Made by a program: the position numbers and the translations under genes | DNA from: a virus | Taxonomy: Duplodnaviria > Caudoviricetes | Strand: one strand, 5' to 3' | IMG/VR virus record: IMGVR_UViG_2882674194_000007 | Location: 86,196-150,195 of that record | Length of the DNA stretch: 64,000 bases | The notes under the pieces: model-generated | Told to the model about the DNA's origin: nothing | The model's input: the letters and a program-made list of their open reading frames with translations, nothing else | Databases searched by the model: none | Part shown: piece after piece, positions 1 through 53,428 of the stretch | How the letters are laid out: each line of letters starts with the position of its first letter | Numbering within the stretch: the stretch's first letter is position 1

Positions 1-210
1 TGTATAGGAAGAAAACATGAGGGTGGAAATGGAAATGCGGCAATGTATTTTTGCAAAATGATAGGCATTGGATAGTGATGAAACTAACATTTTAAGTTGG
101 CGGCTGAAAGTTTGGTGTAAAGAGAAAGTTTTTAATGAAGAAGGTGTGGAATAGCCTAAAGTCATCCAGTTTTGAAAAATTAATTTCAACCGGAGAAAGG
201 GATATATAGG

Positions 211-552
211 ATGAAAAAATCAGAATTGAAATCTGGAATGATTATTCAAACAACGCATAACAGATTTGGTGTAATAGAGTTAGAAAATAATCGTATTGAT
301 ATTTGTTATGACCCAGATTCTATAGATAAAGTTTTAGAAAAGATTTCATTGGATGATATTTTTGAATATGGGGATGGACAATTAGGTATTGGATGTATTT
401 TAGATAAAGAAACAAAAGAGAGTTATCCTAATATGTATCGTAATTATGAAGTTGGCGAAAAGGTTATTTTTTATGAAATTGTAGCAATCTATAATTTGCA
501 ACAAATATATTATAATGGTGAGGGGATATACCCATCAATAAAATTGCAATAA
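211..552 (+). CDS. Hypothetical phage protein
   Basis: 113-aa ORF with RBS, flanked by junction motifs at 173 and 562. Confidence 0.7.
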   Translation: MKKSELKSGMIIQTTHNRFGVIELENNRIDICYDPDSIDKVLEKISLDDIFEYGDGQLGIGCILDKETKESYPNMYRNYEVGEKVIFYEIVAIYNLQQIYYNGEGIYPSIKLQ

Positions 553-594
553 TTATAGGAATGAAAATTTGATTTTGTGGTGTGAGGTGATAAG

Positions 595-951
595 ATGACA
601 GAGAATGAAGCAATCGCAAGAATGAGGTACAGGATAGATACAGCAACAGAAGTAATTGGAAAGGGTTCTGATGGTAAGGCTTATGAGGATATGGAAATGG
701 CAATCAAAGCACTTGAAGAAATTCAACAGTACAGAGTAATTGGGACAGTTGAGGAATGTCGAGAGGCACGGGAAAGGCAGATTGGGAAGAACCCCATAAT
801 TTTAAGTGAGCAATCTGTAGAATCAGAGAGAAAATTATATATAGCAAAGTATTTCAAATGTCCTACTTGTGGAAACACATCTACATATTTCGGAGGACTA
901 CCTAATAATTGTCATAATTGTGGTCAGAGGTTGGAGAGTGATACTACATGA
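595..951 (+). CDS. Phage protein with C-terminal Zn-ribbon
   Basis: CPTCG...CHNCG; GAGGTG RBS. Confidence 0.7.
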   Translation: MTENEAIARMRYRIDTATEVIGKGSDGKAYEDMEMAIKALEEIQQYRVIGTVEECREARERQIGKNPIILSEQSVESERKLYIAKYFKCPTCGNTSTYFGGLPNNCHNCGQRLESDTT

Positions 952-1151
952 TCTACCAAATAGCAGATCAAAAGCATCCATTTATGGGACTATACAACAA
1001 GGTTTGTAAAACCCCTGTTTATTGGTGTCGATTACATCAAGTCTGGTTGTCTGATGATGATGTAAAGAAGAAACAATGTAAATGTAAACAGACTTTTGAC
1101 ATGGTTGGTACATATTGTTGCGGAAATTTAGTCAAGAAATCAATAAAATGA
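948..1151 (+). CDS. Small Cys-rich hypothetical protein
   Basis: ATGA overlap with upstream gene. Confidence 0.6.
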   Translation: MIYQIADQKHPFMGLYNKVCKTPVYWCRLHQVWLSDDDVKKKQCKCKQTFDMVGTYCCGNLVKKSIK

Positions 1152-1214
1152 AACTTTTAAGAGGAGAAAAGAGAAATATTAAATTATAAAACAAAATGAA
1201 AAAGGAGAAAAATT

Positions 1215-1982
1215 ATGTGTAATTTTAAAAGCGGAATTATTTTAAAGAACAAAGTGGTTTTAGCACCAGAAGGAAATGAGAGTCATTCAGATTTATTGGA
1301 GAGTCTTGGTATTGAAGATAATCATATAAATGCAACAAAAACATTTGTAAGAGCAGAATTGATTCCAAAAAACAATGACAAAATGACGGATGTAAAAGAG
1401 TGGAGATATAAAGTTGATCAGGATATTGTACCTGATTGGTATGAGAAAGATCCAGAGAGATATGAAAAGGAATTCAGAGATGCAGTTGAAAAGTATATGG
1501 AAGATTGGAGGAAGAAATTCAAATATATTTGTGGGTATTATTGGACAAGTGTACAGGATGGAGATCGTACATATTATTTTATGAATAGTATCCTTAAAAA
1601 GTCTGAGTTTGGTAAGACAAATAATTACGCAGAATCTTATGTACGCAAGGAGCTTGTTAATAGTGAGTTAGCTGAATCTTTAAAGAAAGAATTTGGAGAC
1701 AAATTACTTCCTATTTCGCTGGATTTGACATCAATGGATGGATTTAAGGATTATGATATGGTAGAAGGCGACATTCTCGCGATTACTAATATTCAGTTGT
1801 TAATGAAATTCGGAGAAAGCATTCCATTGATTGATAATTGGTATTGGCTTGCTACACCTAATCAGACACCCAAAAGAGGAGATGCCCGCTGTGTTCAGTT
1901 TGTTAACTCCTGTGGCTATGTGTGCTACAACGTCTGTGGCTATGACGGGGGCGTGCGTCCGTTTTTTATCCTTAAATCTTAA
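1215..1982 (+). CDS. DGR target protein, C-terminal CLec-type (DUF6273-like) variable domain
   Basis: C-terminus WYWLATP...GVRPFFIL; last ~27 codons match TR. Confidence 0.9.
   Translation: MCNFKSGIILKNKVVLAPEGNESHSDLLESLGIEDNHINATKTFVRAELIPKNNDKMTDVKEWRYKVDQDIVPDWYEKDPERYEKEFRDAVEKYMEDWRKKFKYICGYYWTSVQDGDRTYYFMNSILKKSEFGKTNNYAESYVRKELVNSELAESLKKEFGDKLLPISLDLTSMDGFKDYDMVEGDILAITNIQLLMKFGESIPLIDNWYWLATPNQTPKRGDARCVQFVNSCGYVCYNVCGYDGGVRPFFILKS
1884..1963 (+). repeat. DGR variable repeat (VR)
   Basis: 80-nt ungapped match to 2474-2553; 14 of 16 mismatches are at TR adenines. Confidence 0.95.
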
Positions 1983-2024
1983 ATCTTTGAATCTTGCGAG
2001 AATCTTTCGGATAGCCAGGAATTA

Positions 2025-2043
2025 GGCGCTGCGTAGCAGTGCC
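2025..2043 (+). promoter_or_regulatory. GC-rich hairpin downstream of VR/IMH (DGR target-recognition hairpin)
   Basis: GGCGCTGC-GTA-GCAGTGCC stem-loop ~60 nt after VR. Confidence 0.65.
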
Positions 2044-2083
2044 GTGGCTTGTCGATGAGCGACTGAAAGGAGCGGAGTAGCCA

Positions 2084-2452
2084 GTGAGCGAAGCGAAACT
2101 GGATGTTATTGTAAAATCAATTAATCTTATGGAATATACCATGACAATTACATCAAACCGAAAGAGGTATCCAGTTAAGCATTTGACATTGGTAAAACGC
2201 ATCCAAAATCGCTGTATGGATATATATGAATATTTGCTTGATGCGAATAGGCTGAAATTGGATACTTCAAAATTAGAACGTCAGGAATTACAAACAAAAG
2301 CAATTTCGTGTTGTGATAAATTGTCCTGTTATGTAGAACTTTCTATGAAGTTAAATTTGATTGGAAGTGATACAGTTGAATATTGGCAGAAACAAATAAA
2401 TGATGTGAAATATATGAGCATTGCTTGGCGTTCAAAAGATAAAGAGAGATAA
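2084..2452 (+). CDS. avd: DGR accessory variability determinant (Avd-like four-helix bundle)
   Basis: 122-aa basic helical protein between target and TR; RYP..K..L..RI and W-containing C-terminus typical of Avd. Confidence 0.85.
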   Translation: MSEAKLDVIVKSINLMEYTMTITSNRKRYPVKHLTLVKRIQNRCMDIYEYLLDANRLKLDTSKLERQELQTKAISCCDKLSCYVELSMKLNLIGSDTVEYWQKQINDVKYMSIAWRSKDKER

Positions 2453-2473
2453 TTTTAGGTTGTTTGTTGTATA

Positions 2474-2553
2474 ACCCACTATGTTCAGTACGTTAACTCC
2501 AATGGCAATGTGAACTACAACGACTGTGACTATGACAAAGGTGTGCGTCCGTT
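2474..2553 (+). ncRNA. DGR template repeat (TR)
   Basis: Non-coding, AAY-rich copy of VR; ends GTGCGTCCGTTCTGG (IMH*) vs GTGCGTCCGTTTTTT in VR; flanks 2457-2468 and 2615-2626 are complementary. Confidence 0.95.
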
Positions 2554-2672
2554 CTGGATCGGAAGACGAAAGAAAGTAAGAGAAACACTGAAATTAGAGT
2601 CCCGATATCAAAAGAATAAACAACCTTTCCTAGCTCAAAAATGTCAGGATAAATACAAAGGAACAAAATTTT

Positions 2673-3710: not shown

Positions 3711-3724
3711 AAGAGAGGTTCATT

Positions 3725-4009: not shown

Positions 4010-4049
4010 TTGAAACACGAGTTTCATAGATGAGGAGTGAGAAAGATAA

Positions 4050-4541
4050 ATGTTAAAGCCAGCACAATTATATAAAGATGAATTGCAGAAGAGAAACATT
4101 GAAACATGGTATGACCAGAGATATATGTATTATCACAGCGGAACAGGCGCATATGATATTCAGTTTGCGGATAATAATTGCGATAAGCACCAGTTTGTGT
4201 CTGTAGACAAAGATGATAATGTACTTGGTTATATATCTTACAAAATTGATTGGTGCGCTTTAAATGCTGACAACTTTGGAATTATAAGCTATGACATGGG
4301 AAATGTTGAATTTGCAAAAGACTGTTATAAAGTGGTATGTGATTTATTTGAAAAGTATCACATGAATAGAGTTGGATGGTTTGCTTTTGCTGATAATCCT
4401 GCAATTAGAGGGTATAGAAGTTTTATAAAGAAACATGGAGGTAGGGAATGTGCTTATTTGCGGCAGATTTCTAAACTTACAGACGGAAATTTACATGACG
4501 CTGTTGAATTTGAAATATTGGCAGAGGAATTTATTCGATAA
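4050..4541 (+). CDS. GNAT acetyltransferase, RimJ/RimL-like
   Basis: VLGYISY, FEKYHMNRV, ADNPAIRGY, G.LHD...EIL pattern. Confidence 0.6.
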   Translation: MLKPAQLYKDELQKRNIETWYDQRYMYYHSGTGAYDIQFADNNCDKHQFVSVDKDDNVLGYISYKIDWCALNADNFGIISYDMGNVEFAKDCYKVVCDLFEKYHMNRVGWFAFADNPAIRGYRSFIKKHGGRECAYLRQISKLTDGNLHDAVEFEILAEEFIR

Positions 4542-4564
4542 ATCGAAGGTTTCAAGGAAGGAGC

Positions 4565-4801
4565 GTGAGTAATATTAAAGAAAATATGATTAAAACGCAA
4601 ATAGGTAAAAATATATTTCATGAATATGATTCAAATTCACTTTTTGATCGAAATATAGAAGAATTTCATAATATGACAAAAGACCATACTGAAATTTTAG
4701 GTCAATTTCTTGATTTTACAGCAATGAGTATAGAACAACTTAAAGAGTGTTTGTTAAGTGGTTATATACACATGGATAGAGGTAAGTTTATTAGCAGATG
4801 A
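4565..4801 (+). CDS. Hypothetical protein
   Basis: ORF between motifs 4539 and 4799. Confidence 0.6.
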   Translation: MSNIKENMIKTQIGKNIFHEYDSNSLFDRNIEEFHNMTKDHTEILGQFLDFTAMSIEQLKECLLSGYIHMDRGKFISR

Positions 4802-4832
4802 ATGAAACATTTCAACTGAGGAGGTAGATAAA

Positions 4833-5024: not shown

Positions 5025-5027
5025 AAT

Positions 5028-5138: not shown

Positions 5139-5174
5139 GTCGGTTTTCACTACAAAAATAAAACGGAGGATAAT

Positions 5175-5489: not shown

Positions 5490-5596
5490 GCGGTTGAAAT
5501 AAATCTTTCAAAGAAATAGAAATAGTAACTATAAAAACGAAAGGAGTAAGAGGTTTGCTGGCCAGCATGAAAGACTGTCTTTACTCCAAAATGTAA

Positions 5597-7219: not shown

Positions 7220-7728
7220 ATTCTGCTTGTGGTGAAGAAGATATATTGCTGGCAGCACTTAAATATCAACGCACAGAATACGCAAAGAAAATCAGAAAGG
7301 ACTATGAAGCAGGTAGAATTCAGGAACGTAGATGTAACATGAGAGAATATACTCTTAGGACAGATGGGCTTTGCAATACGATAACTACTGTTACGAAAGA
7401 CAATTATATAGCTGTTGGTGCTGCTATGCGTGGTAGATATAATTCTGATGGAAAAATAGAACAGCAGATAGAAGTAAGAGAAGATGAATTGTCTAATGCT
7501 ATTACAACTGTTCAGAAGGATAGTTTGGTTGTAGAGAAGAAGTCATGACTTGAAAAGAAATATGCAGAATTTTATGAAAAGCATGGTTATATTCCTGAGT
7601 ATTTTGTTCCTTACAATGGAACTGAATGTACAGATTATGCACCAACTTTAACTGCAAATTCTAATACAAGTCCAACACATTCTGGAACAGTTTTGATTAT
7701 GGAGATTGGCAAAGAAAACAAGTCTTAA
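7216..7728 (+). pseudogene. Free-standing MTase variable-region-like ORF interrupted by in-frame TGA at 7546
   Basis: NTITTVTKDN / NAITTVQKDS repeats; frame stays open after the TGA to TAA 7726-7728. Confidence 0.55.
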
Positions 7729-7761
7729 AACCCACGATTCAAGGATGGAGGAGGAAAGAAA

Positions 7762-8085: not shown

Positions 8086-8133
8086 ATAGTCTTGAAATCT
8101 GCGATTTATCGTGTGTGGAGGTGAATTTAGTGG

Positions 8134-8427: not shown

Positions 8428-8434
8428 ATAAACA

Positions 8435-9076: not shown

Positions 9077-9504
9077 TGCGCAGAAGAATAACGGGAAATA
9101 TTTGTACTGGTCTTGGTAATCCATCACCAGTAATTTTTGACAACGGATGGACAGGTAATGAAAAGTTCAATGAGACTGCGAAGCTATTTTTTGAAGACGC
9201 TCTAAATTCATTAAAAGACGAAACTGTCAATGATGTTGGCGGTTTCGATTTTAAAATAGAATTAGAAGATAACAGATTTAGAATCTTATTTGGTATTGAA
9301 CCATCATATATGTATGATCCGTATATTTGTTATTACTTCGATAGCCAAAAAGAGAAAAGTTATATACATAAGGGACAGGCACTTGGATATTATGGTGCTG
9401 ACATCAAAATTAAATCGAAGAAAAATTATAAAAAATGTGACAAAGAATTTAAAGAATGTATAGATGAGCATTGGGATAATTTGATGAGGTGTTTAAGTGA
9501 ATAA
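9076..9504 (+). CDS. Hypothetical protein
   Basis: Coupled to upstream stop. Confidence 0.65.
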   Translation: MRRRITGNICTGLGNPSPVIFDNGWTGNEKFNETAKLFFEDALNSLKDETVNDVGGFDFKIELEDNRFRILFGIEPSYMYDPYICYYFDSQKEKSYIHKGQALGYYGADIKIKSKKNYKKCDKEFKECIDEHWDNLMRCLSE

Positions 9505-9730
9505 TGGAATATTTGCAAATTATACAGGGATTCCAATAATAGTTGTTCCTGATAGCAAAAAGCAAAATAGAACGCATAAGAAAAAGAGAATAAATAAGAA
9601 GTGGGCCAAGAGATATGGTTATACAGTATACAATTCAATTGAAGATGAAAAGGTGATTACGATGAATGGAAGCATGTATGTAAATCCGAGAACTTATTAT
9701 AAGCTAAAATCTCTTGAATTATATACTTAG
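9497..9730 (+). CDS. Basic phage protein
   Basis: RTHKKKRINKKWAKRYG motif. Confidence 0.6.
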   Translation: MNNGIFANYTGIPIIVVPDSKKQNRTHKKKRINKKWAKRYGYTVYNSIEDEKVITMNGSMYVNPRTYYKLKSLELYT

Positions 9731-9757: not shown

Positions 9758-10084
9758 ATGAACTCAAAATATGAAAATATGTCTTTAAAAGAAATTATTA
9801 GACAGATAGAAAAGAAGGATAAAAGAATTGCTGAGTTGGAGAAAAAAGTTTCTGATATGAATGACACCATCAGAACAATCGGTAATCAGAATCGTAAACT
9901 GAAAAGAAATAATGAAAGATATCAGGAACGATTAACAGAAGTTTTATATAAAGGTGAGATTAAGAATTGCTCAACATGTAAAAATAATGTTAAATTTCCT
10001 CCTCCTCATACTTGTGATATTTGTACCAGTTTAGACCAGGAAGAAGAATATGAGATGTGGGAGGAAAGGATTGAGATTAATTGA
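9758..10084 (+). CDS. Coiled-coil, Cys-rich hypothetical protein
   Basis: GGAGGTG RBS. Confidence 0.65.
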   Translation: MNSKYENMSLKEIIRQIEKKDKRIAELEKKVSDMNDTIRTIGNQNRKLKRNNERYQERLTEVLYKGEIKNCSTCKNNVKFPPPHTCDICTSLDQEEEYEMWEERIEIN

Positions 10085-10418
10085 TGCAGATAATTTAACA
10101 AAAGAAACAGAAAAATCTATGCATGACAATCCTCATAAAAATAGACAAATTTCTCAAAATCATTTAACAGAACATATTCATTTTTTGTCATTAATTGGAA
10201 GACAATCAACAGTAACAGACGATAGAATTACGAAAGCATTGGAGTTTGTATGGAATTATGGTCAAATTGATGGAGATCATCATAAGACATGGGTTATTGA
10301 TCAAATTGTTAGAATTTTGTGTGGTAGTAATGAGGAATATAAAAAGTGGGTTGATAAATATGAAGAACCTTTAGAAGATGGTGATTATTACAGTTGGAAT
10401 CAAGGTATCAATCCTTAA
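10072..10418 (+). CDS. Hypothetical phage protein (start uncertain)
   Basis: RLIDAD N-terminus; YGQIDGDHHKTWVIDQ. Confidence 0.55.
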
Positions 10419-10451
10419 ATCTTGCATTTTATAGGAGGAGAAAAAGAAGTT

Positions 10452-12027: not shown

Positions 12028-12100
12028 TTAATAAAGAAAGGATAAAATCAGAAGTTCCTATAGGTGAAAAGTGCGCACAGCTTATGACGGTAAGCGAGGA

Positions 12101-14299
12101 ATGAGAATTTTACTTTTATTAAGAGGATCTGCCGGATGTGGGAAATCTACATGGATTGAGAAAAATGGATTAAAACCATATACATTGTCGGCTGATGATA
12201 TAAGGCTTCTGTGTCAGAGTCCTATTATGCAAGTAGATGGCGCTGAAGGCATCAGCCAGGTAAACGATAATGTCACATGGAAGACTTTATTTAATTTGTT
12301 AGAAGTCAGAATGCAGAAGGGTGAATTTACTGTAATTGACGCTACAAATTCTAAGACTTCTGAAATGAACAGATATAAGGAAATGTGCAATACATATAGA
12401 TACAGGATTTATTGTGTTGATTTTACGGATATTTCTATTGATGAAGTTAAGAGAAGGAATGCAAACAGAGAAGTATTAAAGAGAGTCCCTGAAGAAGTGA
12501 TTGATAAGATGTATTCAAGATTTGCAACTCAGAAAATACCATCAGGTATCAAAGTTATCAAACCTGATGAATTAGATACTATCTGGATGAGAATGATCGA
12601 TATGTCTGAATACAAAAAGATTCATCATATTGGAGATATTCATGGATGTAATACAGTTTTGCAGAAGTACTTATCAGATAATGGTGGTATGAAAGATGAT
12701 GAGTTTTATATTTTTACAGGTGATTATATTGATAGAGGACTTGAAAATGCCGATGTTGTAAAATTTCTCATTTCCATTAAGGATAAGAAAAATGTTCTTA
12801 TGTTGGAGGGGAATCATGAGAGATGGTTGTGGCTATATGCAAATGGATGTACAGGTAAATCAAAAGAATTTGAATTAATTACAAAACCAGCTCTGGAAGA
12901 AGCGAGAATTGATAAGAAGGATATAAGGCAGCTTTATAGAAGATTTGGTCAGTGTGTTTATTATAAATATGGCGATAATGTTTATTTGGTTACTCATGCT
13001 GGACTTAGTACGCTTCCAAAGAATTTGTCATTTGTAGCAACGGATCAGATGATTAGAGGTGTTGGTGGTTACAATGATTTTGAGAAAATCGCAGAAACAT
13101 TTGTCAACACTACACCAGACAATGTTTATCAGATTCATGGACACAGAAATACAAAGAGATTAGATACAAAGGTAAATGACAGGGTATTCAATTTGGAAGG
13201 TCGTGTGGAATTTGGTGGAGAATTAAGATGTGTACAGGTTGATAAAAATGGTATTCACACAATCGAAATTCAAAATGAAGTATTCAAGACACCGGAAATG
13301 CAGAGTGAACAGACTGTTACAAGTAGTTCAGTTACAGACACGATTATCTCTTTAAGGGCTAATAGATATATTCAGGAAAAGAAATTTGGCAATATCTCTT
13401 CCTTTAATTTTACTGAAAAGGCATTTTATGACAAGGTTTGGGATGAACAGACCACAAAATCAAGAGGGTTATATCTTGATACCCTAAAAGGAAAAGTAGT
13501 TGCAAGGGCATATGATAAGTTCTTTAATATCAACGAAAGACCAGAAACGAAGTTTGATATGCTGCAATACAAACTGCAATTTCCTGTAACAGCTTATGTT
13601 AAAGAAAATGGTTTCTTGGGCATTGTAAGTTACAACGAATATGAAGATGATTTGTTGATTGCAAGTAAGTCTACTCTTGATAGCCAGTTTGCACAGTGGT
13701 TTAGAGAAATGTTATATGAAAAGATTTCTGCTGACAATATTCAGGAAATGAAGAAATATATTAAAGAGCATAATGTTTCATTTGTATTTGAGTGTGTTGA
13801 CATGAAGAATGACCCACATATTATCGAATATCCAAACAGTGAATTATTCTTACTTGATATTGTTCAGAATGATATGAACTTTTCTAAATATGAATATGAC
13901 ACAATGGTTGATGTTGCTAATCAGTTTGGAATTACAACGAAAGAAAAGGCATTTGAGATTGCAACATGGCAGGAGTTCTTTGATTGGTACTATGACATTT
14001 TGGAAGAAGATTATGAGTATGATGGACGCAAGATTGAAGGATTTGTCATTGAGGACAGTGTAGGCTACATGACAAAACTGAAACTGACATACTACAATTT
14101 CTGGAAGTTTATGAGAAGTATTTCACATGAAGCGATCAGGAATGGATATATCAGGAAGACATCGGCTTTAACTACTCCAACAGCAAATGAATATTATGCT
14201 TGGGTTAGAAAATTGCACGATGTAGAAGATAAAGATAGTATTCCGAGAGATATTTGTACGCTGAGAAGACTGTTTTATAAGGACAAGGAGAAAAATTGA
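12101..14299 (+). CDS. RNA repair enzyme: polynucleotide kinase + metallophosphoesterase + Rnl1-type RNA ligase
   Basis: GSAGCGKST P-loop and DATN; GDIHG/GDYIDRG/GNHE/HGH; RAYDKFFN, KENG, EGFV, KLK ligase motifs. Confidence 0.85.
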   Translation: MRILLLLRGSAGCGKSTWIEKNGLKPYTLSADDIRLLCQSPIMQVDGAEGISQVNDNVTWKTLFNLLEVRMQKGEFTVIDATNSKTSEMNRYKEMCNTYRYRIYCVDFTDISIDEVKRRNANREVLKRVPEEVIDKMYSRFATQKIPSGIKVIKPDELDTIWMRMIDMSEYKKIHHIGDIHGCNTVLQKYLSDNGGMKDDEFYIFTGDYIDRGLENADVVKFLISIKDKKNVLMLEGNHERWLWLYANGCTGKSKEFELITKPALEEARIDKKDIRQLYRRFGQCVYYKYGDNVYLVTHAGLSTLPKNLSFVATDQMIRGVGGYNDFEKIAETFVNTTPDNVYQIHGHRNTKRLDTKVNDRVFNLEGRVEFGGELRCVQVDKNGIHTIEIQNEVFKTPEMQSEQTVTSSSVTDTIISLRANRYIQEKKFGNISSFNFTEKAFYDKVWDEQTTKSRGLYLDTLKGKVVARAYDKFFNINERPETKFDMLQYKLQFPVTAYVKENGFLGIVSYNEYEDDLLIASKSTLDSQFAQWFREMLYEKISADNIQEMKKYIKEHNVSFVFECVDMKNDPHIIEYPNSELFLLDIVQNDMNFSKYEYDTMVDVANQFGITTKEKAFEIATWQEFFDWYYDILEEDYEYDGRKIEGFVIEDSVGYMTKLKLTYYNFWKFMRSISHEAIRNGYIRKTSALTTPTANEYYAWVRKLHDVEDKDSIPRDICTLRRLFYKDKEKN

Positions 14300-14353: not shown

Positions 14354-14395
14354 CAGACATGAAATCGAGATTTTAAGGTAGAAAAGAGGTGATAG

Positions 14396-16398: not shown

Positions 16399-16529
16399 CA
16401 CGTTGAAAAATCTGTTTCAAAGGGAGTTATCAACTCATAACTGGTGATCTCCATTCGTGAGATAGTTGCCTTACCAATTCTAACGACTCACTTCAAACGG
16501 TAGAAAATCAGCGTTTACGACAGGCGGTA

Positions 16530-21392: not shown

Positions 21393-21464
21393 TAGTCTTG
21401 AAATTTTGCTTTTATCGGTTGAGCAAGAAATATAAAAAATAAATCAAAAAGGAGAAAGAAATTT

Positions 21465-22789: not shown

Positions 22790-22837
22790 GTCTTAAAACC
22801 AGAGTTTCATTGGCAAAAATTTGATAGAAAGGACAAT

Positions 22838-23969: not shown

Positions 23970-24936
23970 GCTGGTGAAAGAATATACATATCCAAGTGGA
24001 AGTGTGTATGTGTTATATAACAAAGAAAAGAATTTCTACATAGAGACAACATCTATGCAGGATGTAAATACTAAAGGTAAGTCACAAGAAATTATTATGA
24101 CTGATGATGTAGATTTAATAAAGAAAAATCTGGTTCTGTTTGAAGAAAAATGGCTTACAGCAATTAGTACGCAATATGGATGTCCACAACATTGTCAGTT
24201 CTGCTTGGTTCCAGAATTAGGTTTTCATGGGAATCTTACAACAGAAGAAATGTGGGAACAGCTTGAATTCGTATTCAATCAACATAAGGAAGTAACAAAA
24301 AGCGATAAAATTAAAGTCGGTTTTGCTCGTATGGGAGAACCACAATATAATTGGAAGAATATTTTGCAAGTTATGAGAGATATGAAAACATATAGAGATG
24401 GTTTTACATTTCTACCATGTTACAATACCATTCTTCCAAAAGTAAAAGTATTTGGTAAGAATCCGGTAGATGTTATAAAAGAAGAAGTAATGTCTGTAAA
24501 AGAATATCTTGATGGATTTATGCACATTCAGATTTCTACTAACAGTACAAATGAAGACGAAAGAAAATATCTTTTTGGTGGAGCAGATGTAGTAACCATA
24601 GAAGAGATGAAGCGAGAATTTAATAATATGCCAAATAACAACAGGCTTATTACATTGAATTTCATTTGTGGAGCCGGATGGGAACTTGATCCTGATAAAT
24701 TATATGGCTTAGATCCCAATGTGTTCTGCGTAAAAATTACACCTCTAAACACTACAAACGCTACTAAGGAACATGGTCTTGAAGATGCTATCCAGTGGAA
24801 TTGGAACAATATGAATAAAATCAAAGAGAAAGTTGAAAGTTGTGGTCTGAAGGTGATTGTAGATGTTGCAGCAAAAGCAGAATTGCCGTTATGTTGTGGT
24901 AATTTGGTACAAGACTATAAGAAAAATAGGCAATAA
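23956..24936 (+). CDS. RlmN/Cfr-like radical SAM methyltransferase
   Basis: ISTQYGCPQHCQFC, GNLTTEE, MGEP, C-terminal CCGNL. Confidence 0.75.
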   Translation: MKHFELVKEYTYPSGSVYVLYNKEKNFYIETTSMQDVNTKGKSQEIIMTDDVDLIKKNLVLFEEKWLTAISTQYGCPQHCQFCLVPELGFHGNLTTEEMWEQLEFVFNQHKEVTKSDKIKVGFARMGEPQYNWKNILQVMRDMKTYRDGFTFLPCYNTILPKVKVFGKNPVDVIKEEVMSVKEYLDGFMHIQISTNSTNEDERKYLFGGADVVTIEEMKREFNNMPNNNRLITLNFICGAGWELDPDKLYGLDPNVFCVKITPLNTTNATKEHGLEDAIQWNWNNMNKIKEKVESCGLKVIVDVAAKAELPLCCGNLVQDYKKNRQ

Positions 24937-24977
24937 AAGGTTAATTTTATGGTTTTGTAAGAAAGAGAGGAATTAAG

Positions 24978-25538: not shown

Positions 25539-25566
25539 TTAAAATCTTGGTTTCATTTGATGGGAG

Positions 25567-26180: not shown

Positions 26181-26399
26181 TTGGAGTGGATCAAATGTAT
26201 TTCTGGTCAAATGCCAGAAGATGATGAAAGATATAAAGGTAAAAAAGTTATTAATGTTATTGCCACCACTAATAAAGGGGTTGTTACGAAGGTACAAAGG
26301 ATTTTTAATGATTATGCTAACATTTGGTATTGGGGAAGGATATGTGGAGGTATGAGGGCATGGATGCCGTTGCCTGAGCCATACAAAGAGAAGCATTGA
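26181..26399 (+). CDS. DUF551-like phage protein
   Basis: MEWI....MP...AWMPLPEPY. Confidence 0.75.
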   Translation: MEWIKCISGQMPEDDERYKGKKVINVIATTNKGVVTKVQRIFNDYANIWYWGRICGGMRAWMPLPEPYKEKH

Positions 26400-26909
26400 A
26401 TGCACGATTTCAAGGTTAAAAAAGAGGTGAAAAATATAAATTTATTCAAATTAATTAAAGAATACATAAGTAAAGAAATTAAAGTTTTGGATAAACAACT
26501 TGATTATTATAATAGACTATCAGAAGAAGAAAAGTATCACATTGAAACAGGTAAAGAATTCAATAAACTAGTTGCAGAATATCCGATTTCACAAGAAGAA
26601 TTATTTGATATGAATAAAGTGTTATGTGAATATGTTTTGAGAACACGAAATACTGACATAAAAAAATATTTTTTCATTAATGATGATATGGTAAGACTTC
26701 CATTCATGCTCAATGGTTTATGTTATGACCAAATCAATATGATTATTTCTGATTTGCTTAGAGAAATGAATATTGATGAAAAAGGTAATAATGTTTTGAT
26801 TGGTGGTACTGAGGAATATGAAAATAACTGGAAATATGAAATCGGAGAAAATTATGGTCTTCAAAAGGCAATTAGAATAATTAAAAAGTATTGGAAGGAG
26901 AATATATAA
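26400..26909 (+). CDS. Hypothetical protein (start probably ~26436)
   Basis: ORF track; GAGGTGA RBS downstream of motif 26397. Confidence 0.6.
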   Translation: MHDFKVKKEVKNINLFKLIKEYISKEIKVLDKQLDYYNRLSEEEKYHIETGKEFNKLVAEYPISQEELFDMNKVLCEYVLRTRNTDIKKYFFINDDMVRLPFMLNGLCYDQINMIISDLLREMNIDEKGNNVLIGGTEEYENNWKYEIGENYGLQKAIRIIKKYWKENI

Positions 26910-27257
26910 ATGGATTGTAAATATCCGGTTAAAAGTAGAAGTTATAAAGCGTGTGTATTGTGTTCTGATAAAAATATATGTGAAAATTCAACTATCGTAA
27001 ATAATGCAACAACACTACTGTCTGCAAGTGAAGCGCATAAAAAGACAACAGATAATATTAGAGATTGTTTAACAAAAGAATTATCAGAAATCAGTAAAAG
27101 AATCAGTGATGCTATCGCAAATGGTAAGTTCTATATTAATGGTGATGGCTGCTTACAATATGAAACAACTCAAAGATTAGAAGAACTTGGCTATAAAGTC
27201 AAAACTGGAAATCAATATAACGAAGATCATTGGAATATTAGTTGGAATAACGGTTGA
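26910..27257 (+). CDS. Hypothetical protein
   Basis: AAGGAG RBS. Confidence 0.65.
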   Translation: MDCKYPVKSRSYKACVLCSDKNICENSTIVNNATTLLSASEAHKKTTDNIRDCLTKELSEISKRISDAIANGKFYINGDGCLQYETTQRLEELGYKVKTGNQYNEDHWNISWNNG

Positions 27258-27362
27258 AACCGAAATTTTATGGAAGAAAATGTTTGCAAAACAGAAAAAT
27301 AAGTAATGAAAGGTAAAGATAATCCTAGGTAAAAAGTAATGTACATTACACTCAGGTAAAGA

Positions 27363-28685: not shown

Positions 28686-28737
28686 TAAAAATATCAATGA
28701 AAGCGTTCTTTCATTGGGATAAGTTGGAGGTAAATTA

Positions 28738-29007
28738 GTGTTCAGAAATAAATATATAAAACCATTAACAAAGGGTCAGCTTAGTAAATTACATGGACAA
28801 GACATAAGAGTACATTTTTTGAGTAATGAGTATACAAGCGATAGAATTTGGAAAGTTAGGTTGGATAAAAACACTGTTGTGATTACAGATAATAAAGGTG
28901 ATTACAGAGCATTTGATAATTATAAAAAACATTATAATGAATCTACAGTAGGATCAGGCGTGTTAGTTTATAGGTTGCCACAAATTCCACATGATATTGA
29001 ATGGTAG
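28738..29007 (+). CDS. Hypothetical protein
   Basis: GGAGGT RBS. Confidence 0.6.
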   Translation: MFRNKYIKPLTKGQLSKLHGQDIRVHFLSNEYTSDRIWKVRLDKNTVVITDNKGDYRAFDNYKKHYNESTVGSGVLVYRLPQIPHDIEW

Positions 29008-29026
29008 GAGGTAAAAATAAATTAAA

Positions 29027-29287
29027 ATGAATAGAGATATAGGTGCTAAATTACCACAAACAAATTGTAGAACACCAATGCCACCTGTAAAGGAATTTGG
29101 TGAAAAAATTTGTGAGAATTGTGATAAAGAAGATGTGTGTATGTATAAAGAAGAGTGCATGAAAGCTATAAAGGATATTTTGGATATTGAGAGTAGAACT
29201 AATGTGTTTATTAAAACACATATTGATTGTAAGAAGTGGAGCAAGAAATCATCTGCGGTTAATATGAATGATATTTTATACAGATGA
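29027..29287 (+). CDS. Cys-rich protein, paralog of 17359-17683
   Basis: Shared 238-bp segment. Confidence 0.7.
   Translation: MNRDIGAKLPQTNCRTPMPPVKEFGEKICENCDKEDVCMYKEECMKAIKDILDIESRTNVFIKTHIDCKKWSKKSSAVNMNDILYR
29047..29284 (+). repeat. 238-bp diverged duplication, copy 2
   Basis: Ends immediately before motif at 29285. Confidence 0.9.
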
Positions 29288-29324
29288 ATTGTCACTTTCG
29301 TTGAAAAATTTGAGGTATAAAACA

Positions 29325-29977: not shown

Positions 29978-30197
29978 AAAAGAGATAGATGATAAAATAA
30001 TGAAATATACAAAATCTAATGTAGAAATTACTTGTAGTAATGTTGGTGTAAAAGCTGGTTCGTGGCAATGTGATTTGTGTATATTAAAAAATAATTGTGG
30101 TGCTTTAAAGGAAGTGAAGCGTAAAAATATGTCTTGAAATTCTTATTTTATTGGGTGAGTTTGGAGGTGATATAAAATAGTTTGGAAAGCATTATAT

Positions 30198-43036: not shown

Positions 43037-43351
43037 ATGAACAGTATTATAGATACATGGACTGAGGAGATAAAGGAGCGATGTAAAAATCAAAATATAA
43101 ATACAGAAGATTGTCTAATTATGTTTCAGAGAAACCAGACATATTTTAATGGCGAAGAAATATCTGGATTCTCTGAATCAAAAGACGGTAGATGGATGTG
43201 CATTCCTGTATATAACGAAGAAATATCTGCTATGAGTGATGAATATGTGTATACTCCACAGTGTTTTGAAGTCAAAGATAAGATGACAACATATTTATCT
43301 AATGGTTTCATGTCAACATTAACGACTATTTGGTTGTTAATGAATCCATAA
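43037..43351 (+). CDS. Hypothetical protein
   Basis: Stop codon overlaps motif 43349. Confidence 0.6.
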   Translation: MNSIIDTWTEEIKERCKNQNINTEDCLIMFQRNQTYFNGEEISGFSESKDGRWMCIPVYNEEISAMSDEYVYTPQCFEVKDKMTTYLSNGFMSTLTTIWLLMNP

Positions 43352-43379
43352 AATAGGACTTTTAACGCCTGAGAAAGAG

Positions 43380-45251: not shown

Positions 45252-45308
45252 GAAACAATGAAAGATAGGTTTCATTTGTTGTATTATACATAAAATTGGA
45301 GGTTCCGA

Positions 45309-45683
45309 ATGAAGTTAGCAAGAAAAATTATGATGTATACATTATTAATATGTATTGCTTTTATCGTGATTTATTCTGTTGTTGATTATCTTGGAAAACA
45401 ATCAGAATATCATGAAAGCAGATATGAATTAGAAGAAATAGAAAGTGGTATATATGCTAGAACTTATCATACAGTATCAACGATTCCAGCGCATAACTAC
45501 GATATAATTGAAATTTGTATAAATGGAAAAGTTCGTACTTATAAAGGAAGTGTAGATATAACTTATACAAATGAAAATCCATATGCTGTAATCATGCAAA
45601 ATAATCTTGTTAATGATGAAAAAGTTTTTGTATATGTTCCAAAAGACACTGTTGATTACAGAGAAAGTGTTGGTGTGAAATGA
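45309..45683 (+). CDS. Membrane-anchored hypothetical protein
   Basis: N-terminal TM. Confidence 0.6.
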   Translation: MKLARKIMMYTLLICIAFIVIYSVVDYLGKQSEYHESRYELEEIESGIYARTYHTVSTIPAHNYDIIEICINGKVRTYKGSVDITYTNENPYAVIMQNNLVNDEKVFVYVPKDTVDYRESVGVK

Positions 45684-46101
45684 TTAAATTTAGAGCGTGG
45701 GATAAAGAAGCAAAAGAAATGATTTATGATGTATAAAACACATATGATTTTACTTGTAGCGGATCTGGTGCTATGGAACCTTCGTTTAAAGATGTGCTAG
45801 AGGACAATGACAGATATGAAGTTATGCAATTTGTGAATCTGTGTGATTTTGATGATAAGGAATTATATACTGGTGATATTTCTCAGAATCAAAAAGGAGA
45901 AGTATTTGTTGTTTACTATGGGAAGGTGGATTTTGTATGTGCTTGGTAAAGGAATGGAATTGGGCAACTTCCAATGGTGTTTCTCCAACACAATTTAGAG
46001 GGTTAAGTGATATGAATTGCGGAGGGTGGTTCTTAGAACAACATAGAATTATTGGTAATATCTATGAAAATACAGAATTGATTGCTGAGGAGAGGTATTA
46101 A
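45680..46101 (+). pseudogene. YopX-family pseudogene
   Basis: MIKFRAWDK...YTGDI...IIGNIYEN with in-frame TAA at 45734 and further stops/frameshift. Confidence 0.75.
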
Positions 46102-46454
46102 TGAAACTTTTAGAGATATGGAAAAGAATAGGTAAGCAGCCATTACGAATTACACGTAGAAAAGATGCGATTGTATTTATTGGTGATTCTGAATACAGAA
46201 TTAAAAATATCAGATATGATCGTGGACAATTTATCGGTTTTGAAGCAAAACCAAAAGAAAAAGTGGAATGGATAAGTAAAGAAGTTAAGCCCAAAGAAGA
46301 TACATGGATAATTGTTAAAGACAAAGACGGTCAAGAATATAGAGATCATCAGTGGACAGGTCATGCATGGTATCATTTTTCAATAGGGAAAGATAGTTGC
46401 GATGGTTGGAGAAGTGATGTAGATATAGTTAGTTGGAGATATCAGGAGGATTAA
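46101..46454 (+). CDS. Hypothetical protein
   Basis: ORF track. Confidence 0.6.
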   Translation: MKLLEIWKRIGKQPLRITRRKDAIVFIGDSEYRIKNIRYDRGQFIGFEAKPKEKVEWISKEVKPKEDTWIIVKDKDGQEYRDHQWTGHAWYHFSIGKDSCDGWRSDVDIVSWRYQED

Positions 46455-46458
46455 TCGA

Positions 46459-46725
46459 ATGGCAGGAACATTAAAAGAGATTACAGAAAATTATGAGAAA
46501 TTACATAGATTACAGATGATAGAAACGATTTTAGATAAAACGCATAGTTATGTTCATGATGTAGTTAGCAGAGTGGAAGACGAGTTCGATGATTGTGTAG
46601 ATTTTGAGGATTATATTACAGAGAGCGTGATAAAGAGCACTAAAGAAAATCTTGCTACGTTAGGAAAATATTTAGGTTGTAAATCGTATGCTGATTTAAT
46701 AAGTGATGTAATGCATAAACAGTAA
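46459..46725 (+). CDS. Hypothetical protein
   Basis: GGAGG RBS. Confidence 0.6.
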   Translation: MAGTLKEITENYEKLHRLQMIETILDKTHSYVHDVVSRVEDEFDDCVDFEDYITESVIKSTKENLATLGKYLGCKSYADLISDVMHKQ

Positions 46726-46935
46726 GGCTTTGAAACGCTCGTTTCAAGACAAAAATGGAGGGTATTTATGAAAGCAAATATAGAGATTAGCGAAGGAACA
46801 ATGGATAGATTGGCTGGCGCATTAGATTTGTCACCATTATATGATGAGGATTATGGAGTTGATGAAGAAAATTTAAGTTATGCAATAAGATTAATGGTTG
46901 ACCTCTGTGCTGATTAGAAGGAGAAGATAATATCT

Positions 46936-47669: not shown

Positions 47670-47675
47670 ATACCG

Positions 47676-47957: not shown

Positions 47958-48017
47958 CCAGTCTTAAAACCACGCTTTCATTGGTATAAAAAACAAATAA
48001 AATAGGAGAGAATACAT

Positions 48018-48569: not shown

Positions 48570-48614
48570 TTATGGCAATAAATCAAGTCTTTCAAAGAAA
48601 AAATAAAGGAGAAT

Positions 48615-49067: not shown

Positions 49068-49102
49068 TCTTGAAATCGCAATTTCAAAGGAGGATTTAAT
49101 GG

Positions 49103-49291: not shown

Positions 49292-49315
49292 ATTTCAACG
49301 GAGGTAAAAAGAGAA

Positions 49316-50118: not shown

Positions 50119-50155
50119 ATGAATTGTGTGTTTTAATGGAAGGAGAATATGAAAA

Positions 50156-50419: not shown

Positions 50420-50430
50420 GAGGAATGTGA

Positions 50431-52404
50431 TTGGATAAATTAAAAAGAATAAAGAAATTAACTCATCAGCTTAATCACTACAGAGATTCATATTATAACA
50501 ATTCTGTATCAGAAATTTCAGATCATGAATATGATGATTTATTTGATGAATTAAAAAGACTGGAAGAAGAAACAAATATTGTAATGGCTAATTCACCAAC
50601 ACATACAGTTGGATATGAAGCCAAGTCAAAACTTGAAAAGGTGAAACACTCGCATCCTATGCTTTCACTTGATAAAACAAAGTCAGTAGATGATTTAAAG
50701 AAATTTGCTAGTGATAAAGATTGCTTACTTATGTGTAAAATGGACGGATTAACTGTACTGCTTACTTATGAGAATGGTGAGTTGATTCAGGCGGAGACTC
50801 GTGGAAATGGTGAAGAGGGAGAAATTATTACCCATAATGCAAGGGTGTTTGAAAACATTCCAATACATATAGATTATACAGGACATTTGGAAGTTGAAGG
50901 TGAAGCTATTATTACATATGGTGACTTTGAGAGGATTAACAGTAAACTTCCTGAGAATGAAAAATATAAGAATCCACGAAATCTTGTAAGTGGTTCAGTT
51001 AGGCAGTTGGATAGTAATATTGCGGCACAGAGACATATTAAATTTATAGCATGGAAAGTTCCGAAAATTGAAGATTCAAAGTATGATAAATATTTTGCTA
51101 AGAAGTTAGAGCAAGTAAAAGAATTAGGTTTCGATATTGTACCATACATTATTTATTTTGAAGATACTGTTGAAAACAGAGTAGCACTTTTGAAAAATAC
51201 TGCAAAAGAATTAGGATGTCCCATAGATGGATTGGTTATGACTTACAATGATATTTCTTATGGAGAATCATTAGGAACGACAGGACACCACCCAAAACAT
51301 TCGTTAGCATATAAATTCTATGATGACATTTATCCTACAAGATTGTTAGATGTAGAATTTACGATGGGCAAGACGGGTGTTTTAACTCCAACAGCAGTAT
51401 TTGAACCAGTAGAGATTGATGGCACAATGGTTGAAAGAGCTTCACTTCATAATATTTCAATTATGAAAAGTTTGGGAATTGTATCAAAGTATCAGGAAAT
51501 TGGTGTTTATAAGGCTAATATGATTATTCCTCAGATAAAATATGCAGAAAAAATGAATTGTGTATCAGTAAAAGAATCTATTTGCATTCCAGGTGTTTGT
51601 CCTGTTTGTGGGTGGAATACAGAAAGACTTAAAGATAATGACACAGAGATTCTCGTATGTACTAATCCAAACTGTAAAGGAAAGTTACTTGGTAAACTAT
51701 CACATTTTGTAAGCAAGAACGCAATCAATATTGATGGATTATCTGAGCAGACATTACAGAAATTTATTGATTTAGGGTGGTTAAATTCATTTAAAGATAT
51801 TTATTATTTATCAGACTATAAAGAAGAGATGTACAAACTTGATGGTTTTGGAAAGAAATCAGTAGATAAACTCTTAGAAAGCATTGAGAAAAGTAGAAAT
51901 ACTACATTGGATAGATTTATTTATGGACTGTGTATTCCTCTGATTGGTAGAACAGCAAGTAAAGTTATTGCAAAAGAATTTAATAATCAAGCAGAAGAAT
52001 TTTATGATATTTGGTGCCATAGTTATGACTTTACTAAATTAGATGATTTTGGAGATGCAATGAATAACTCAATGAAGGTTTTCATCAGAGATAATTATGG
52101 ATGGATTGCTGAGTTAATTGGGGAATTTGACTTTAGAGAGTCAGATAATAATGGTAATGTAAAGCAAGTGCTTGAAGGTGAAACTTTTGTAATCACTGGT
52201 AGTTTAAAAGCATATAAGAATCGTGAAGAATTGGTTTCAGTTATTGAAAGAAACGGAGGAAAAGTATCTGGTTCTGTGTCTGCTAAAACATCATATTTAA
52301 TCAATAACGATGTTGCAAGTACATCAGGCAAAAATAAGAAAGCTCATGATTTAGGAATACCAATTATCAGCGAAGGTGAATTTGTTCAGATGATCACATC
52401 TTAA
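50431..52404 (+). CDS. ligA: NAD-dependent DNA ligase
   Basis: HPMLSL, KMDG, TRGNG, RASLHN, Zn finger, BRCT. Confidence 0.97.
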   Translation: MDKLKRIKKLTHQLNHYRDSYYNNSVSEISDHEYDDLFDELKRLEEETNIVMANSPTHTVGYEAKSKLEKVKHSHPMLSLDKTKSVDDLKKFASDKDCLLMCKMDGLTVLLTYENGELIQAETRGNGEEGEIITHNARVFENIPIHIDYTGHLEVEGEAIITYGDFERINSKLPENEKYKNPRNLVSGSVRQLDSNIAAQRHIKFIAWKVPKIEDSKYDKYFAKKLEQVKELGFDIVPYIIYFEDTVENRVALLKNTAKELGCPIDGLVMTYNDISYGESLGTTGHHPKHSLAYKFYDDIYPTRLLDVEFTMGKTGVLTPTAVFEPVEIDGTMVERASLHNISIMKSLGIVSKYQEIGVYKANMIIPQIKYAEKMNCVSVKESICIPGVCPVCGWNTERLKDNDTEILVCTNPNCKGKLLGKLSHFVSKNAINIDGLSEQTLQKFIDLGWLNSFKDIYYLSDYKEEMYKLDGFGKKSVDKLLESIEKSRNTTLDRFIYGLCIPLIGRTASKVIAKEFNNQAEEFYDIWCHSYDFTKLDDFGDAMNNSMKVFIRDNYGWIAELIGEFDFRESDNNGNVKQVLEGETFVITGSLKAYKNREELVSVIERNGGKVSGSVSAKTSYLINNDVASTSGKNKKAHDLGIPIISEGEFVQMITS

Positions 52405-52467
52405 ATGTAGAAATAGTATATGTAACTCGTAAACACATCAACGAAAAATCCAAATTAGAGGAGACTT

Positions 52468-53133
52468 ATGAAAAAGAGAATAACGGCTATTATTTTACTG
52501 ACATTTATGTTGGCTTCTTTAGTTTCACCATTTTTAGTAAAAGCAAGTGAAAATAATGAGTCAGAAATAAAAGAAGTTCAACTTGTTTTTGTAACAGAAA
52601 AACCAGTAACTACTGAAACAAAAGAAATTATTGATACAAAAAGTTTAGAACAGATAATGATGGATGGTTTTTATGATGAAATGGAATCATTATCAAATAT
52701 TGAAGATAAGCGTGAATGGTTTATTTGATATAAATGCATAATTGAAAAATATGCAGAAATAGTAGATCCACCAGAAACTATTTATGACTATTTTGATGAA
52801 GAAGAATTAGATTTACTATTCAAAGTAGTGCAAGCAGAGATTGGAGACTCTGATGATTTTATACAGAAAGTTAATGTAGTAAATGTTATTTATAATCGTT
52901 TAGAACATGAAAGATTTCCTGATTTATTATCAGAAGTTTTGGTAGAAGACCAGTTTTCAATCAAAGATATAAAAGCAACAGAAGATACAATTCTTGCATG
53001 TGAATATGCTTTTATGATTGGTGATACTACTGATGAATGCTTATTTTTTGATAGCAATGAAACTTTGAATTATAAAAAAATATTTGAAGATGGTGCACAC
53101 AATTTTTATAAATATTGGAAGGAGGATCAATAA
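52468..53133 (+). pseudogene. Secreted SleB/Hydrolase_2-like cell wall hydrolase split by in-frame TGA at 52726
   Basis: Signal peptide; VQAE...V.NVIYNR...FP...QFS...H.FY; both ORFs in the same frame. Confidence 0.7.
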
Positions 53134-53134
53134 T

Positions 53135-53371
53135 ATGAATACAAGATTAACAGTAAATTTAAATGATTTTGCAAAGGCAAGAAAGTTTTCAAATGAAACT
53201 TCAAAATTTCTGAGCGAAATTGATGTGATTCGAGGGAGATACGTGGTTGACGGCAAGTCTGCCTTGGGAATTCTGACCATCGACTTATCTAAACCAGTAG
53301 ATGTAGAAATACATAGTAGCGATCCATATGAGATTAAAAGATTTAATGATATTATGGGCGAGTTTGTATAA
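53135..53371 (+). CDS. HPr-like protein lacking His15
   Basis: VDGKSALGI (Ser46 motif); no GLHARP. Confidence 0.75.
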   Translation: MNTRLTVNLNDFAKARKFSNETSKFLSEIDVIRGRYVVDGKSALGILTIDLSKPVDVEIHSSDPYEIKRFNDIMGEFV

Positions 53372-53428
53372 GAATAGAAGTGTTATTTCATCGTTTATCG
53401 AAGATATGAGAAAGTTTGAGGTATAGAT

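Follow-up and report, generated by a model that had tools for sequence, protein, structure and literature searches.

Heterospecific cassette exchange with lox or FRT sites uses identical arms around different spacers, only equal spacers recombine, and a DNA segment is thereby swapped in register. Among natural short sites, the difH site of XerH is read base-specifically at the inner 5 bp of each arm and hardly contacted in its 6-bp central region (PMC5241119), and in Acinetobacter many Xer-type pdif sites in accessory regions flank discrete modules that occur in varied contexts (PMC6449649). In phages, the promoter early stem-loops (PeSLs) of the T4 type, consisting of a sigma-70 promoter and a terminator hairpin, serve as exchange points in hyperplastic early regions (PMC2839356, PMC4122927), and SPBRE, a 15-bp element at about 10 promoters of SPbeta, is bound by MrpR/YopR, which has a tyrosine-recombinase fold (PMC10516654). 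Here, a 64,000-nt window of prophage DNA (positions 86,196 to 150,195 of IMG/VR record IMGVR_UViG_2882674194_000007; C133:86348-150347 in genome G000) was analysed for a 16-bp palindrome, TRAAA-N6-TTTYA, that recurs at its gene junctions and is called a joint below. Across related phages the joints keep their order and are labelled by their centres, and gene blocks have been exchanged between them; we give about even chances to the reading that each palindrome is a crossover point with a fixed place and an address of its own, and that gene blocks are exchanged there between cognate centres.

All six sites quoted in an earlier note on this DNA (4011, 5495, 22794, 28698, 46731 and 49071) were found where it had placed them, as were the seven left arms extended by GTCT (7726, 8093, 21399, 22794, 30135, 47965 and 49071). 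The window contains 48 matches to the loose pattern TRAA-N8-TTYA, and shuffled sequence 23.9 ± 4.8 (0 of 100 shuffles reached 48). For the spacer control, the arms were held and the spacer was varied over the plus-strand region of the prophage (C133, 47.8–149 kb). At junctions, TRAAA-Nk-TTTYA gave 29 sites for k = 6 and 0–3 for every other k between 0 and 14, so that the enrichment at junctions that the earlier note had described is real; within coding DNA, k = 6 gave 3 matches and other spacers 0–7, which places k = 6 at background there, and everted and direct arrangements of the arms gave 1–5 matches each. The 4.65-Mb host genome contained only 61 matches to the strict motif, scattered as background, and the motif is thus phage-specific. 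An origin by chance or composition was ruled out by the spacer control and the host background.

Alignment of the sites gave the consensus W-T-R-A-A-A-(t)-N4-(a)-T-T-T-Y-A-W, with A or T at position −1 in all sites and at +17 in 28 of 29, and with G at +19 in 18 of 29, which fits the WNG that had been noticed after the right arm. The first base of a site lies between 8 nt ahead of and 12 nt past the upstream stop codon, also in long intergenic gaps, and many sites directly touch the next ribosome-binding site (RBS). As the earlier note had it, the replication module is without sites (none between 30150 and 43349); the stretch from thyX to int, which it had also called site-free, is largely so, with the exception of two odd sites, one inside a gene (54192) and one at 55931. 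Positions, sequences and placements are collected in Table 1.

Two close relatives could be compared with the window, the phage of G192 (a genome from another genus of the same family, in which the phage lies across eight contigs) and G411 (a 53-kb provirus fragment from IMG/VR), and both share just scattered nucleotide blocks with the window. Thirteen junction sites of the window recur in G411 with an identical 6-bp centre and in the same order (8093, 10416, 14360, 16404, 22794, 25540, 26397, 27255, 30135, 43349, 45259, 46731 and 49071), and 20 sites recur in G192 with identical centres, in the same order and in one orientation per contig, where about one identical-centre match would be expected by chance (for 30 sites in the window and 80 loose ones in G192). 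Flanking DNA (60 nt to the left and right) was unrelated on both sides in 23 of 28 pairs with G411 and in 27 of 34 pairs with G192, counted with the loose pattern and including about 5–7 chance pairs. The intervals between consecutive shared joints differ in length, and in 7 of 12 the cargo had no detectable protein similarity. Three collinear shared joints with unrelated flanks were found between G003 and G005 as well. Equal-centre joints are collinear across genomes, and block boundaries lie on them, for pairs that were found via their equal centres; this would agree with a rule by which only equal centres recombine.

Individual joints could be followed into different neighbourhoods. At least eight IMG/VR contigs have the 16-mer with the centre CGCTCG (joint 46731) between a stop codon and an RBS, next to differing neighbours, and at one of these loci (L146) the upstream gene is that of the window and the downstream gene is not. 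The centre of joint 22794 is present in G411 and in IMG/VR locus L202, the latter with a different downstream neighbour. The G411 counterpart of joint 21399 has the centre TTTTTC, followed by the same 9 nt downstream. The joint with centre CTTGCA comes immediately behind the ortholog of gene 9497-9730 in G192, and the window has two extra genes (9758-10418) upstream of this joint; the left edge of this extra segment carries only decayed motif-like sequence. Between joints 30135 and 43349, the 13-kb replication module differs in G411 (L096-L098), with PolIII alpha only 23% identical, and since this difference lies between two conserved joints, essential modules are exchanged too, not accessory genes alone.

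Near-identical blocks end at the flanking sites. A block of 601 bp (28698-29298), 99.5% identical to G192, runs from the first base of joint 28698 into the right arm (29298) of the degenerate joint 29285, and one of 1490 bp (45256-46744), 99.3% identical to G411, from 3 nt ahead of joint 45259 into the right arm (46744) of joint 46731; in both cases the DNA outside is unrelated. Since the joint is the same in both parents, no scar is left by a crossover at any point within it, and homology therefore always spans the whole joint. Older homology blocks are also bounded at 1144, 22794 and 46731: a 75% block shared with G192 begins 2 nt before joint 1144, whose centre is identical there, and an 86% block shared with G192 terminates inside the right arm of joint 22794. 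At site 54192, within a gene, a 90.6% homology block with G192 ends 2 nt past the site (where the G192 reading frame terminates, ahead of an unrelated gene that has an RBS of its own), and both flanks are homologous in G411. Because this in-gene site is a homology breakpoint, it is the sequence that marks the crossover, and not merely an intergenic location.

The arms were examined for base pairing. Positions 2 and 15 combine as G..C in 14, G..T in 12, A..C in 7 and A..T in 5 sites of the whole prophage (Fisher p = 1.0), the same independence was found in G003 and G411, and the flanking W positions do not pair. As pairing in RNA or single-stranded DNA would require covariation of positions 2 and 15, a hairpin of either kind was ruled out, and it follows that the palindrome is recognised in duplex form, by a symmetric protein dimer. 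This bears on a role in RNA, in which the palindrome would be a hairpin or cleavage site (for RNase III or a MazF-like enzyme) that separates or stabilises cistrons of a polycistronic early mRNA. The location between stop codon and RBS would suit such an element, and a MazF/PemK-like gene, the first behind a strong early promoter, is kept in every lineage. The A..C combinations are, however, as frequent as expected under independence, which leaves no pairing constraint, the stem would have just 5 A-U-rich pairs, and neither the conserved centres nor the block boundaries would be explained. MazF enzymes, moreover, read one single-stranded word, and the two arms are different words in RNA. We consider a role at the RNA level very improbable.

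All 29 centres in the prophage differ from each other. Their four middle positions have 46% G+C (53 of 116), against a background of 32% (z about 3), and among nine joints for which a homologous flank establishes orthology, only 2 of 54 centre bases differ, whereas the flanks diverge by about 12%. The degenerate arm positions flip often between relatives. These counts, statistically weak as they are, point to centres that are functional rather than a mere distance spacer.

A second tyrosine recombinase besides Int, which the earlier note had proposed to look for, is encoded elsewhere in the prophage (317 aa, Xer-like, C133:30835-31788, minus strand), and homologs are present in every lineage examined. 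It scores 72 bits against Pfam Phage_integrase, its relatives in the PDB are XerC-like, XerD and XerA proteins, and it is 23% identical to YopP of SPbeta, with no similarity to YopR/MrpR (it is the one protein of the prophage that was compared with YopR). Six orthologs are only 19–26% identical and yet keep R168, H264, R267, H/W290 and Y300; because the catalytic residues (R..HxxR..H/W..Y) are kept at such low identity, the enzyme is probably active and catalytically intact.

The following sequence of events is proposed. The inverted 5–6-bp arms (W-TRAAA / TTTYA-W) would be read as double-stranded DNA by a symmetric dimer, around a 6-bp centre unique to the junction. When related phages meet in one cell, by co-infection or by infection of a lysogen, strand exchange would take place inside cognate joints, that is, joints of equal centre. 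All DNA to one side of the joint would then be swapped in register, and two such events would exchange one gene block. As the crossover falls inside sequence common to both parents, the joints would persist in order with their centres, and the cargo would be drawn from a large pool. The likeliest catalyst would be the Xer-type tyrosine recombinase of the phage, with the joints behaving like heterospecific lox or FRT sites that accept equal overlaps only. Specificity for equal overlaps is established for Cre, Flp, lambda Int and Xer. For this mechanism, in which a tyrosine recombinase exchanges DNA at specific sites and only between equal centres, we put the chances at even or slightly lower: recombinase action, as opposed to general recombination on 14–19 bp of identity, the identity of the enzyme and the requirement for equal centres are what we infer from the pattern. 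The earlier note had invoked the tolerance of Tn916-type integrases for mismatched overlaps; since exchange appears to occur between cognate, identical centres, such tolerance is superfluous.

Several observations weigh against crossover joints worked by a recombinase. Many mosaic boundaries lie at junctions without the motif (45683, 46101, 47436, 9074, 18731 and 53134), which means that additional exchange routes exist, and part of the cargo is located at different places in relatives. In comparisons among G004, G406 and G407, 17 of 348 ends of high-scoring segment pairs fell within 6 nt of a core, such ends being noisy there. Laboratory hybrids of SPbeta and phi3Ts were joined in ordinary homology, with no motif reported (bioRxiv 10.1101/2020.05.06.055103). 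At no more than about 6 informative bp, each arm is short by the standard of simple recombinase sites; and since the pairs were picked out by their identical centres, the view of centre conservation is biased. An unbiased search for isolated shared 14-mers was swamped by AT-rich chance matches. Next to the Xer-like gene, whose spacer is AT-rich, no convincing extended cognate site was found, and G412 and G414 carry a homolog of the recombinase with the loose motif unenriched, the loose pattern being unenriched even in the motif-bearing G004. With no cognate site by the gene and an uninformative phyletic comparison, we infer rather than observe the link of any protein to the sites, the Xer-like recombinase included.

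The main alternative is a regulator. The 5-N6-5 geometry suits helix-turn-helix (HTH) dimers such as CRP or the 434 repressor. In this alternative, the joints would be sites of a dimeric regulator or architectural protein (a repressor roadblock or an insulator between blocks of early genes). As the sole short stretches common to junctions that otherwise have nothing in common, they would now and then be used for crossover by homologous recombination, general or encoded by the phage, serving as PeSL-like linkers with exchange as a by-product. The phage encodes Cro/CI-type HTH proteins as well as its own recombination set (exonuclease, SSB and ERCC4 nuclease), PeSLs provide a precedent for regulatory cassettes as exchange points (PMC2839356, PMC4122927), and both the many boundaries at junctions or RBSs without the motif and the origin of laboratory hybrids by ordinary homology also speak for it. 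However, a scan found 78 sigma-70-like promoters where 105 were expected, none tied to the motif, and terminator-like hairpins were at chance level and not tied to the sites either. With no excess and no association, identity with a sigma-70 promoter or an intrinsic terminator was rejected, and as many sites abut the RBS, there is no space for a promoter downstream of them. A regulator blind to the centre would leave the G+C-rich, well-kept centres unexplained, and the site in a coding region is a breakpoint too. The identity at a joint is also just 14–19 bp, and the window and G411 share hundreds of chance 14–19-mers, so homology alone cannot single out the joints. On balance we regard a regulatory origin of the pattern as unlikely, though a serious candidate.

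The HTH protein nearest to the early promoter was considered as a reader. A minus-strand gene for a Cro/CI-type HTH protein of 80 aa and a gene for a PemK/MazF-like endoribonuclease of 142 aa are divergently transcribed outside the window (C133:79904-80727; L093:3905-4728), with a consensus TTGACA-N17-TATAAT promoter and two ATAATTAGTG repeats between them. The divergent HTH gene lies beside the MazF-like gene in G003 and G407 as well, and the region is probably the main early control region. Its control DNA carries ATAATTAGTG twice and not the junction motif, which is at odds with the regulatory alternative in this form, and the joints were rejected as operators of this HTH protein.

The earlier note had seen in the joints recombination sites that delimit exchangeable blocks, in a system resembling an integron. 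The first part agrees with relatives that keep the sites and swap the cargo, and with near-identical blocks that end at the sites; the second did not hold. In an integron-like system, promoter-less cassettes would be excised as circles and inserted by an integrase at attC-like sites carried by the cassettes. Sites at the 3′ ends of genes, often across the stop codon, small and diverse accessory genes mostly without promoters of their own, and encoded tyrosine recombinases would all fit. The arms, however, do not covary, leaving no folded single-strand substrate, the site has 16 bp against 57–141 bp, and no attI/Pc platform was found. The joints also hold their place and their own centre as cargo changes and do not travel with cassettes, and whole modules, replication genes included, are exchanged between them. 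Nothing marks Int (61454-62626) or the 317-aa protein as IntI-like; both gave only generic Phage_integrase matches, the extra domain of IntI not having been looked for. An integron-like system is highly improbable, and we rank it last among the explanations.

Table 1. Joints and related sites in the window (window coordinates; strict, TRAAA-N6-TTTYA; DGR, diversity-generating retroelement)
Position	Sequence	Class	Placement	Same centre and flanks in relatives
79..94	TGAAA-CTAACA-TTTTA	strict	junction	G192
173..188	TGAAA-AATTAA-TTTCA	strict	22 nt ahead of start of gene 211-552	
1144..1159	TAAAA-TGAAAC-TTTTA	strict	left edge of DGR block	
4011..4026	TGAAA-CACGAG-TTTCA	strict	1 nt past stop codon; right edge of DGR block	
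4539..4554	TAAAT-CGAAGG-TTTCA	near-match	overlaps stop of 4050-4541; RBS immediately after	
4799..4814	TGAAT-GAAACA-TTTCA	near-match	overlaps stop of 4565-4801	G192
5495..5510	TGAAA-TAAATC-TTTCA	strict	5 nt past stop	G192
7726..7741	TAAAA-CCCACG-ATTCA	near-match	GTCT before; RBS directly after	
8093..8108	TGAAA-TCTGCG-ATTTA	near-match		G411 and G192; both flanks unrelated
10416..10431	TAAAT-CTTGCA-TTTTA	near-match		G411 and G192
14360..14375	TGAAA-TCGAGA-TTTTA	strict		G411 and G192
16404..16419	TGAAA-AATCTG-TTTCA	strict		G411 and G192; both flanks unrelated
21399..21414	TGAAA-TTTTGC-TTTTA	strict	left of LemA pair	G192
22794..22809	TAAAA-CCAGAG-TTTCA	strict	between LemA pair and radical-SAM block	
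24934..24949	TAAAA-GGTTAA-TTTTA	strict	overlaps stop codon	G192
25540..25555	TAAAA-TCTTGG-TTTCA	strict		G411 and G192; both flanks unrelated
26397..26412	TGAAT-GCACGA-TTTCA	near-match	overlaps stop	G411; both flanks unrelated
27255..27270	TGAAA-CCGAAA-TTTTA	strict	overlaps stop	G411 and G192; both flanks unrelated
28698..28713	TGAAA-GCGTTC-TTTCA		left end of recently exchanged two-gene block	
29285..29300	TGAAT-TGTCAC-TTTCG	degenerate	right end of two-gene block	G192 has TGAAT-TATCAC-TTTTA
30135..30150	TGAAA-TTCTTA-TTTTA	strict	last before replication module	G411 and G192
43349..43364	TAAAA-TAGGAC-TTTTA	strict	first after replication module	G411 and G192
45259..45274	TGAAA-GATAGG-TTTCA		left end of 1490-bp block shared with G411	
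46731..46746	TGAAA-CGCTCG-TTTCA		right end of 1490-bp block shared with G411	
47965..47980	TAAAA-CCACGC-TTTCA	strict	GTCT before	
48579..48594	TAAAT-CAAGTC-TTTCA	near-match	9 nt past stop codon; RBS downstream	
49071..49086	TGAAA-TCGCAA-TTTCA	strict		G411; both flanks unrelated
50120..50135	TGAAT-TGTGTG-TTTTA	near-match	1 nt past stop	G192; only upstream flank homologous
54192..54207	TGAAA-AGATTA-TTTCA	strict	inside coding region	
55931..55946	TAAAT-TGCCTG-TTTCA	near-match	surrounding gene calls uncertain	G192

Across the clade, the joints vary in the sequence of their arms. In G001 there are 45 sites, almost all of the form TAAAA-N6-TTTTA, in G003 26 of mixed type and in G005 15. G004 seemed free of the motif, and its junctions carry the variant WGAAA-N6-TTTCW, with GAAA-N6-TTTC at 19 junctions against 0–4 for other spacings; G406 and G407 are alike in this. 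In SPbeta itself (NC_001884), 36 matches were counted, 34 of them TAAAA-N6-TTTTA, and a reversed control gave 3; many of the SPbeta sites lie right behind stop codons, for example those of yoqC, yoqD, yoqG, yoqS, yoqX and yoqY. That the arms change jointly between lineages and independently within a genome is the pattern expected of a co-evolving dimeric reader. For SPbeta-like phages from Bacillus to gut Clostridia, we tentatively propose, at somewhat less than even chances, a dedicated system of about 30 heterospecific core sites per genome through which co-resident relatives would reassort gene blocks in register. As SPbeta carries 36 sites, the idea is testable in a standard laboratory system.

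Identity of the joints with SPBRE was ruled out, since the SPbeta promoter word, AAAAAATATGTATA, is separate from the junction palindromes. In NC_001884, AAAAAATATGTATA lies upstream of aimR, yopM and yorE, which are three of the reported MrpR targets (76190-76215, 77885-77905 and 99570-99595; L385), and is probably SPBRE; the junction palindromes of SPbeta at 76171 and 99498 are distinct from it. Stem-loops and two features labelled 'palindrome' are annotated in the SPbeta record, none of them at junction sites in the 34 kb examined. In the SPbeta papers that were read, no mention of 'palindrom' or of a junction motif was found, and no published description of the joints was found.

The window lies within a prophage of at least 149 kb with 30–33% G+C (C133, 1 to about 149,300), against 47.6% for the host genome, and the left end of the prophage runs beyond the contig. 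Genes in the first 47 kb are mostly on the minus strand, and C133 47.8–149 kb is a single long array on the plus strand, with early and accessory genes as well as those for replication, that terminates in dUTPase, excisionase and the tyrosine integrase Int. Judged by its predicted proteins (PolIII alpha, DnaB, primase, SSB, NAD ligase, NrdD/NrdG and a multi-domain methyltransferase), this is an SPbeta-like large temperate phage. IMG/VR contains many relatives of 110–160 kb with PolIII alpha 69–78% identical, and no close relative of the window at the DNA level was found in the 'phages' collection. For an 89-aa cassette protein, no relative was found in IMG/VR.

Some genes of the prophage were noted apart from the joints. 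The window encodes an RNA-repair-type protein with kinase, phosphoesterase and T4 RNA ligase 1 domains (12071-14299), and a Thg1-like tRNA-His guanylyltransferase and a protein with a GmrSD N domain are encoded upstream of the window (L074:4943-5821 and L074:3002-4375); together, their domains suggest a toolkit against damage to tRNA and other RNA. On the minus strand, an 82-aa open reading frame with a good RBS (55517-55765) lies in a 317-nt gap of the plus-strand array; it matched no Pfam or PHROG family and had no relatives among the compared phages. Outside the window (C133:82332-82967; L093:6333-6968), a 211-aa protein weakly matches RNA polymerase sigma factors in PHROG (E = 9e-6) and has homologs in three of four lineages; it may act as a phage sigma factor in middle or late transcription.

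How unrelated phage modules come to be cleanly joined has been debated since the modular theory was put forward, and here the joints are visible as sequence: short, protein-readable, individually labelled, and common to phages with almost wholly different cargo. Were they read by a recombinase, tyrosine recombination would have a new use and modular exchange a direct mechanism, which would also explain the fast turnover of anti-defence and accessory genes in large temperate phages of Firmicutes. The joints would then amount to a natural form of recombinase-mediated cassette exchange, by which a single DNA genome gains reassortment like that of a segmented virus. They could also be used as natural landing pads for engineering such phages.

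Set against the known systems, the joints share some properties with each. With integron attC sites they share their location, the 3′ end of genes without promoters and often the stop codon itself, and attC is acted on by a tyrosine recombinase; unlike attC, which folds as a single strand, measures 57–141 bp and moves with its cassette, they do none of these. Like SPBRE, they are a repeated short intergenic element in a phage of the SPbeta type. Like PeSLs, they are short conserved intergenic elements that serve as exchange points between otherwise unrelated genes. PeSLs, however, resemble each other and recombine by homology also within a genome, giving mini-circles, whereas the joints have neither promoter nor hairpin and each centre is unique.

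Cassette exchange with heterospecific lox or FRT sites is man-made, with two to few sites and 13-bp arms, and the corresponding equal-centre rule in the phages is drawn from genome comparison. With pdif the joints have in common multiple sites bounding gene modules that occur in different contexts; pdif uses the host XerC/XerD and two different arms, and its modules move between plasmids together with their sites, unlike the phage joints with their symmetric arms, fixed and ordered positions, and centres as labels. From Xer/dif systems in general they differ in having no conserved outer positions of arms of about 11 bp, the information beyond −1/+17 being slight and not two-fold symmetric, and in number, dif being one site per replicon for dimer resolution and the joints about 30 per genome, each with its own centre, and their enzyme a putative one. 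Like XerH/difH, on the other hand, they have inverted arms around a 6-bp centre, with positions 1–5 and 12–16 invariant or two-state; as in the Xer/dif core, the centre is fixed in length (only N6 is enriched) and free in sequence; and, as in these systems, an Xer-like tyrosine recombinase is encoded, here by the phage itself.

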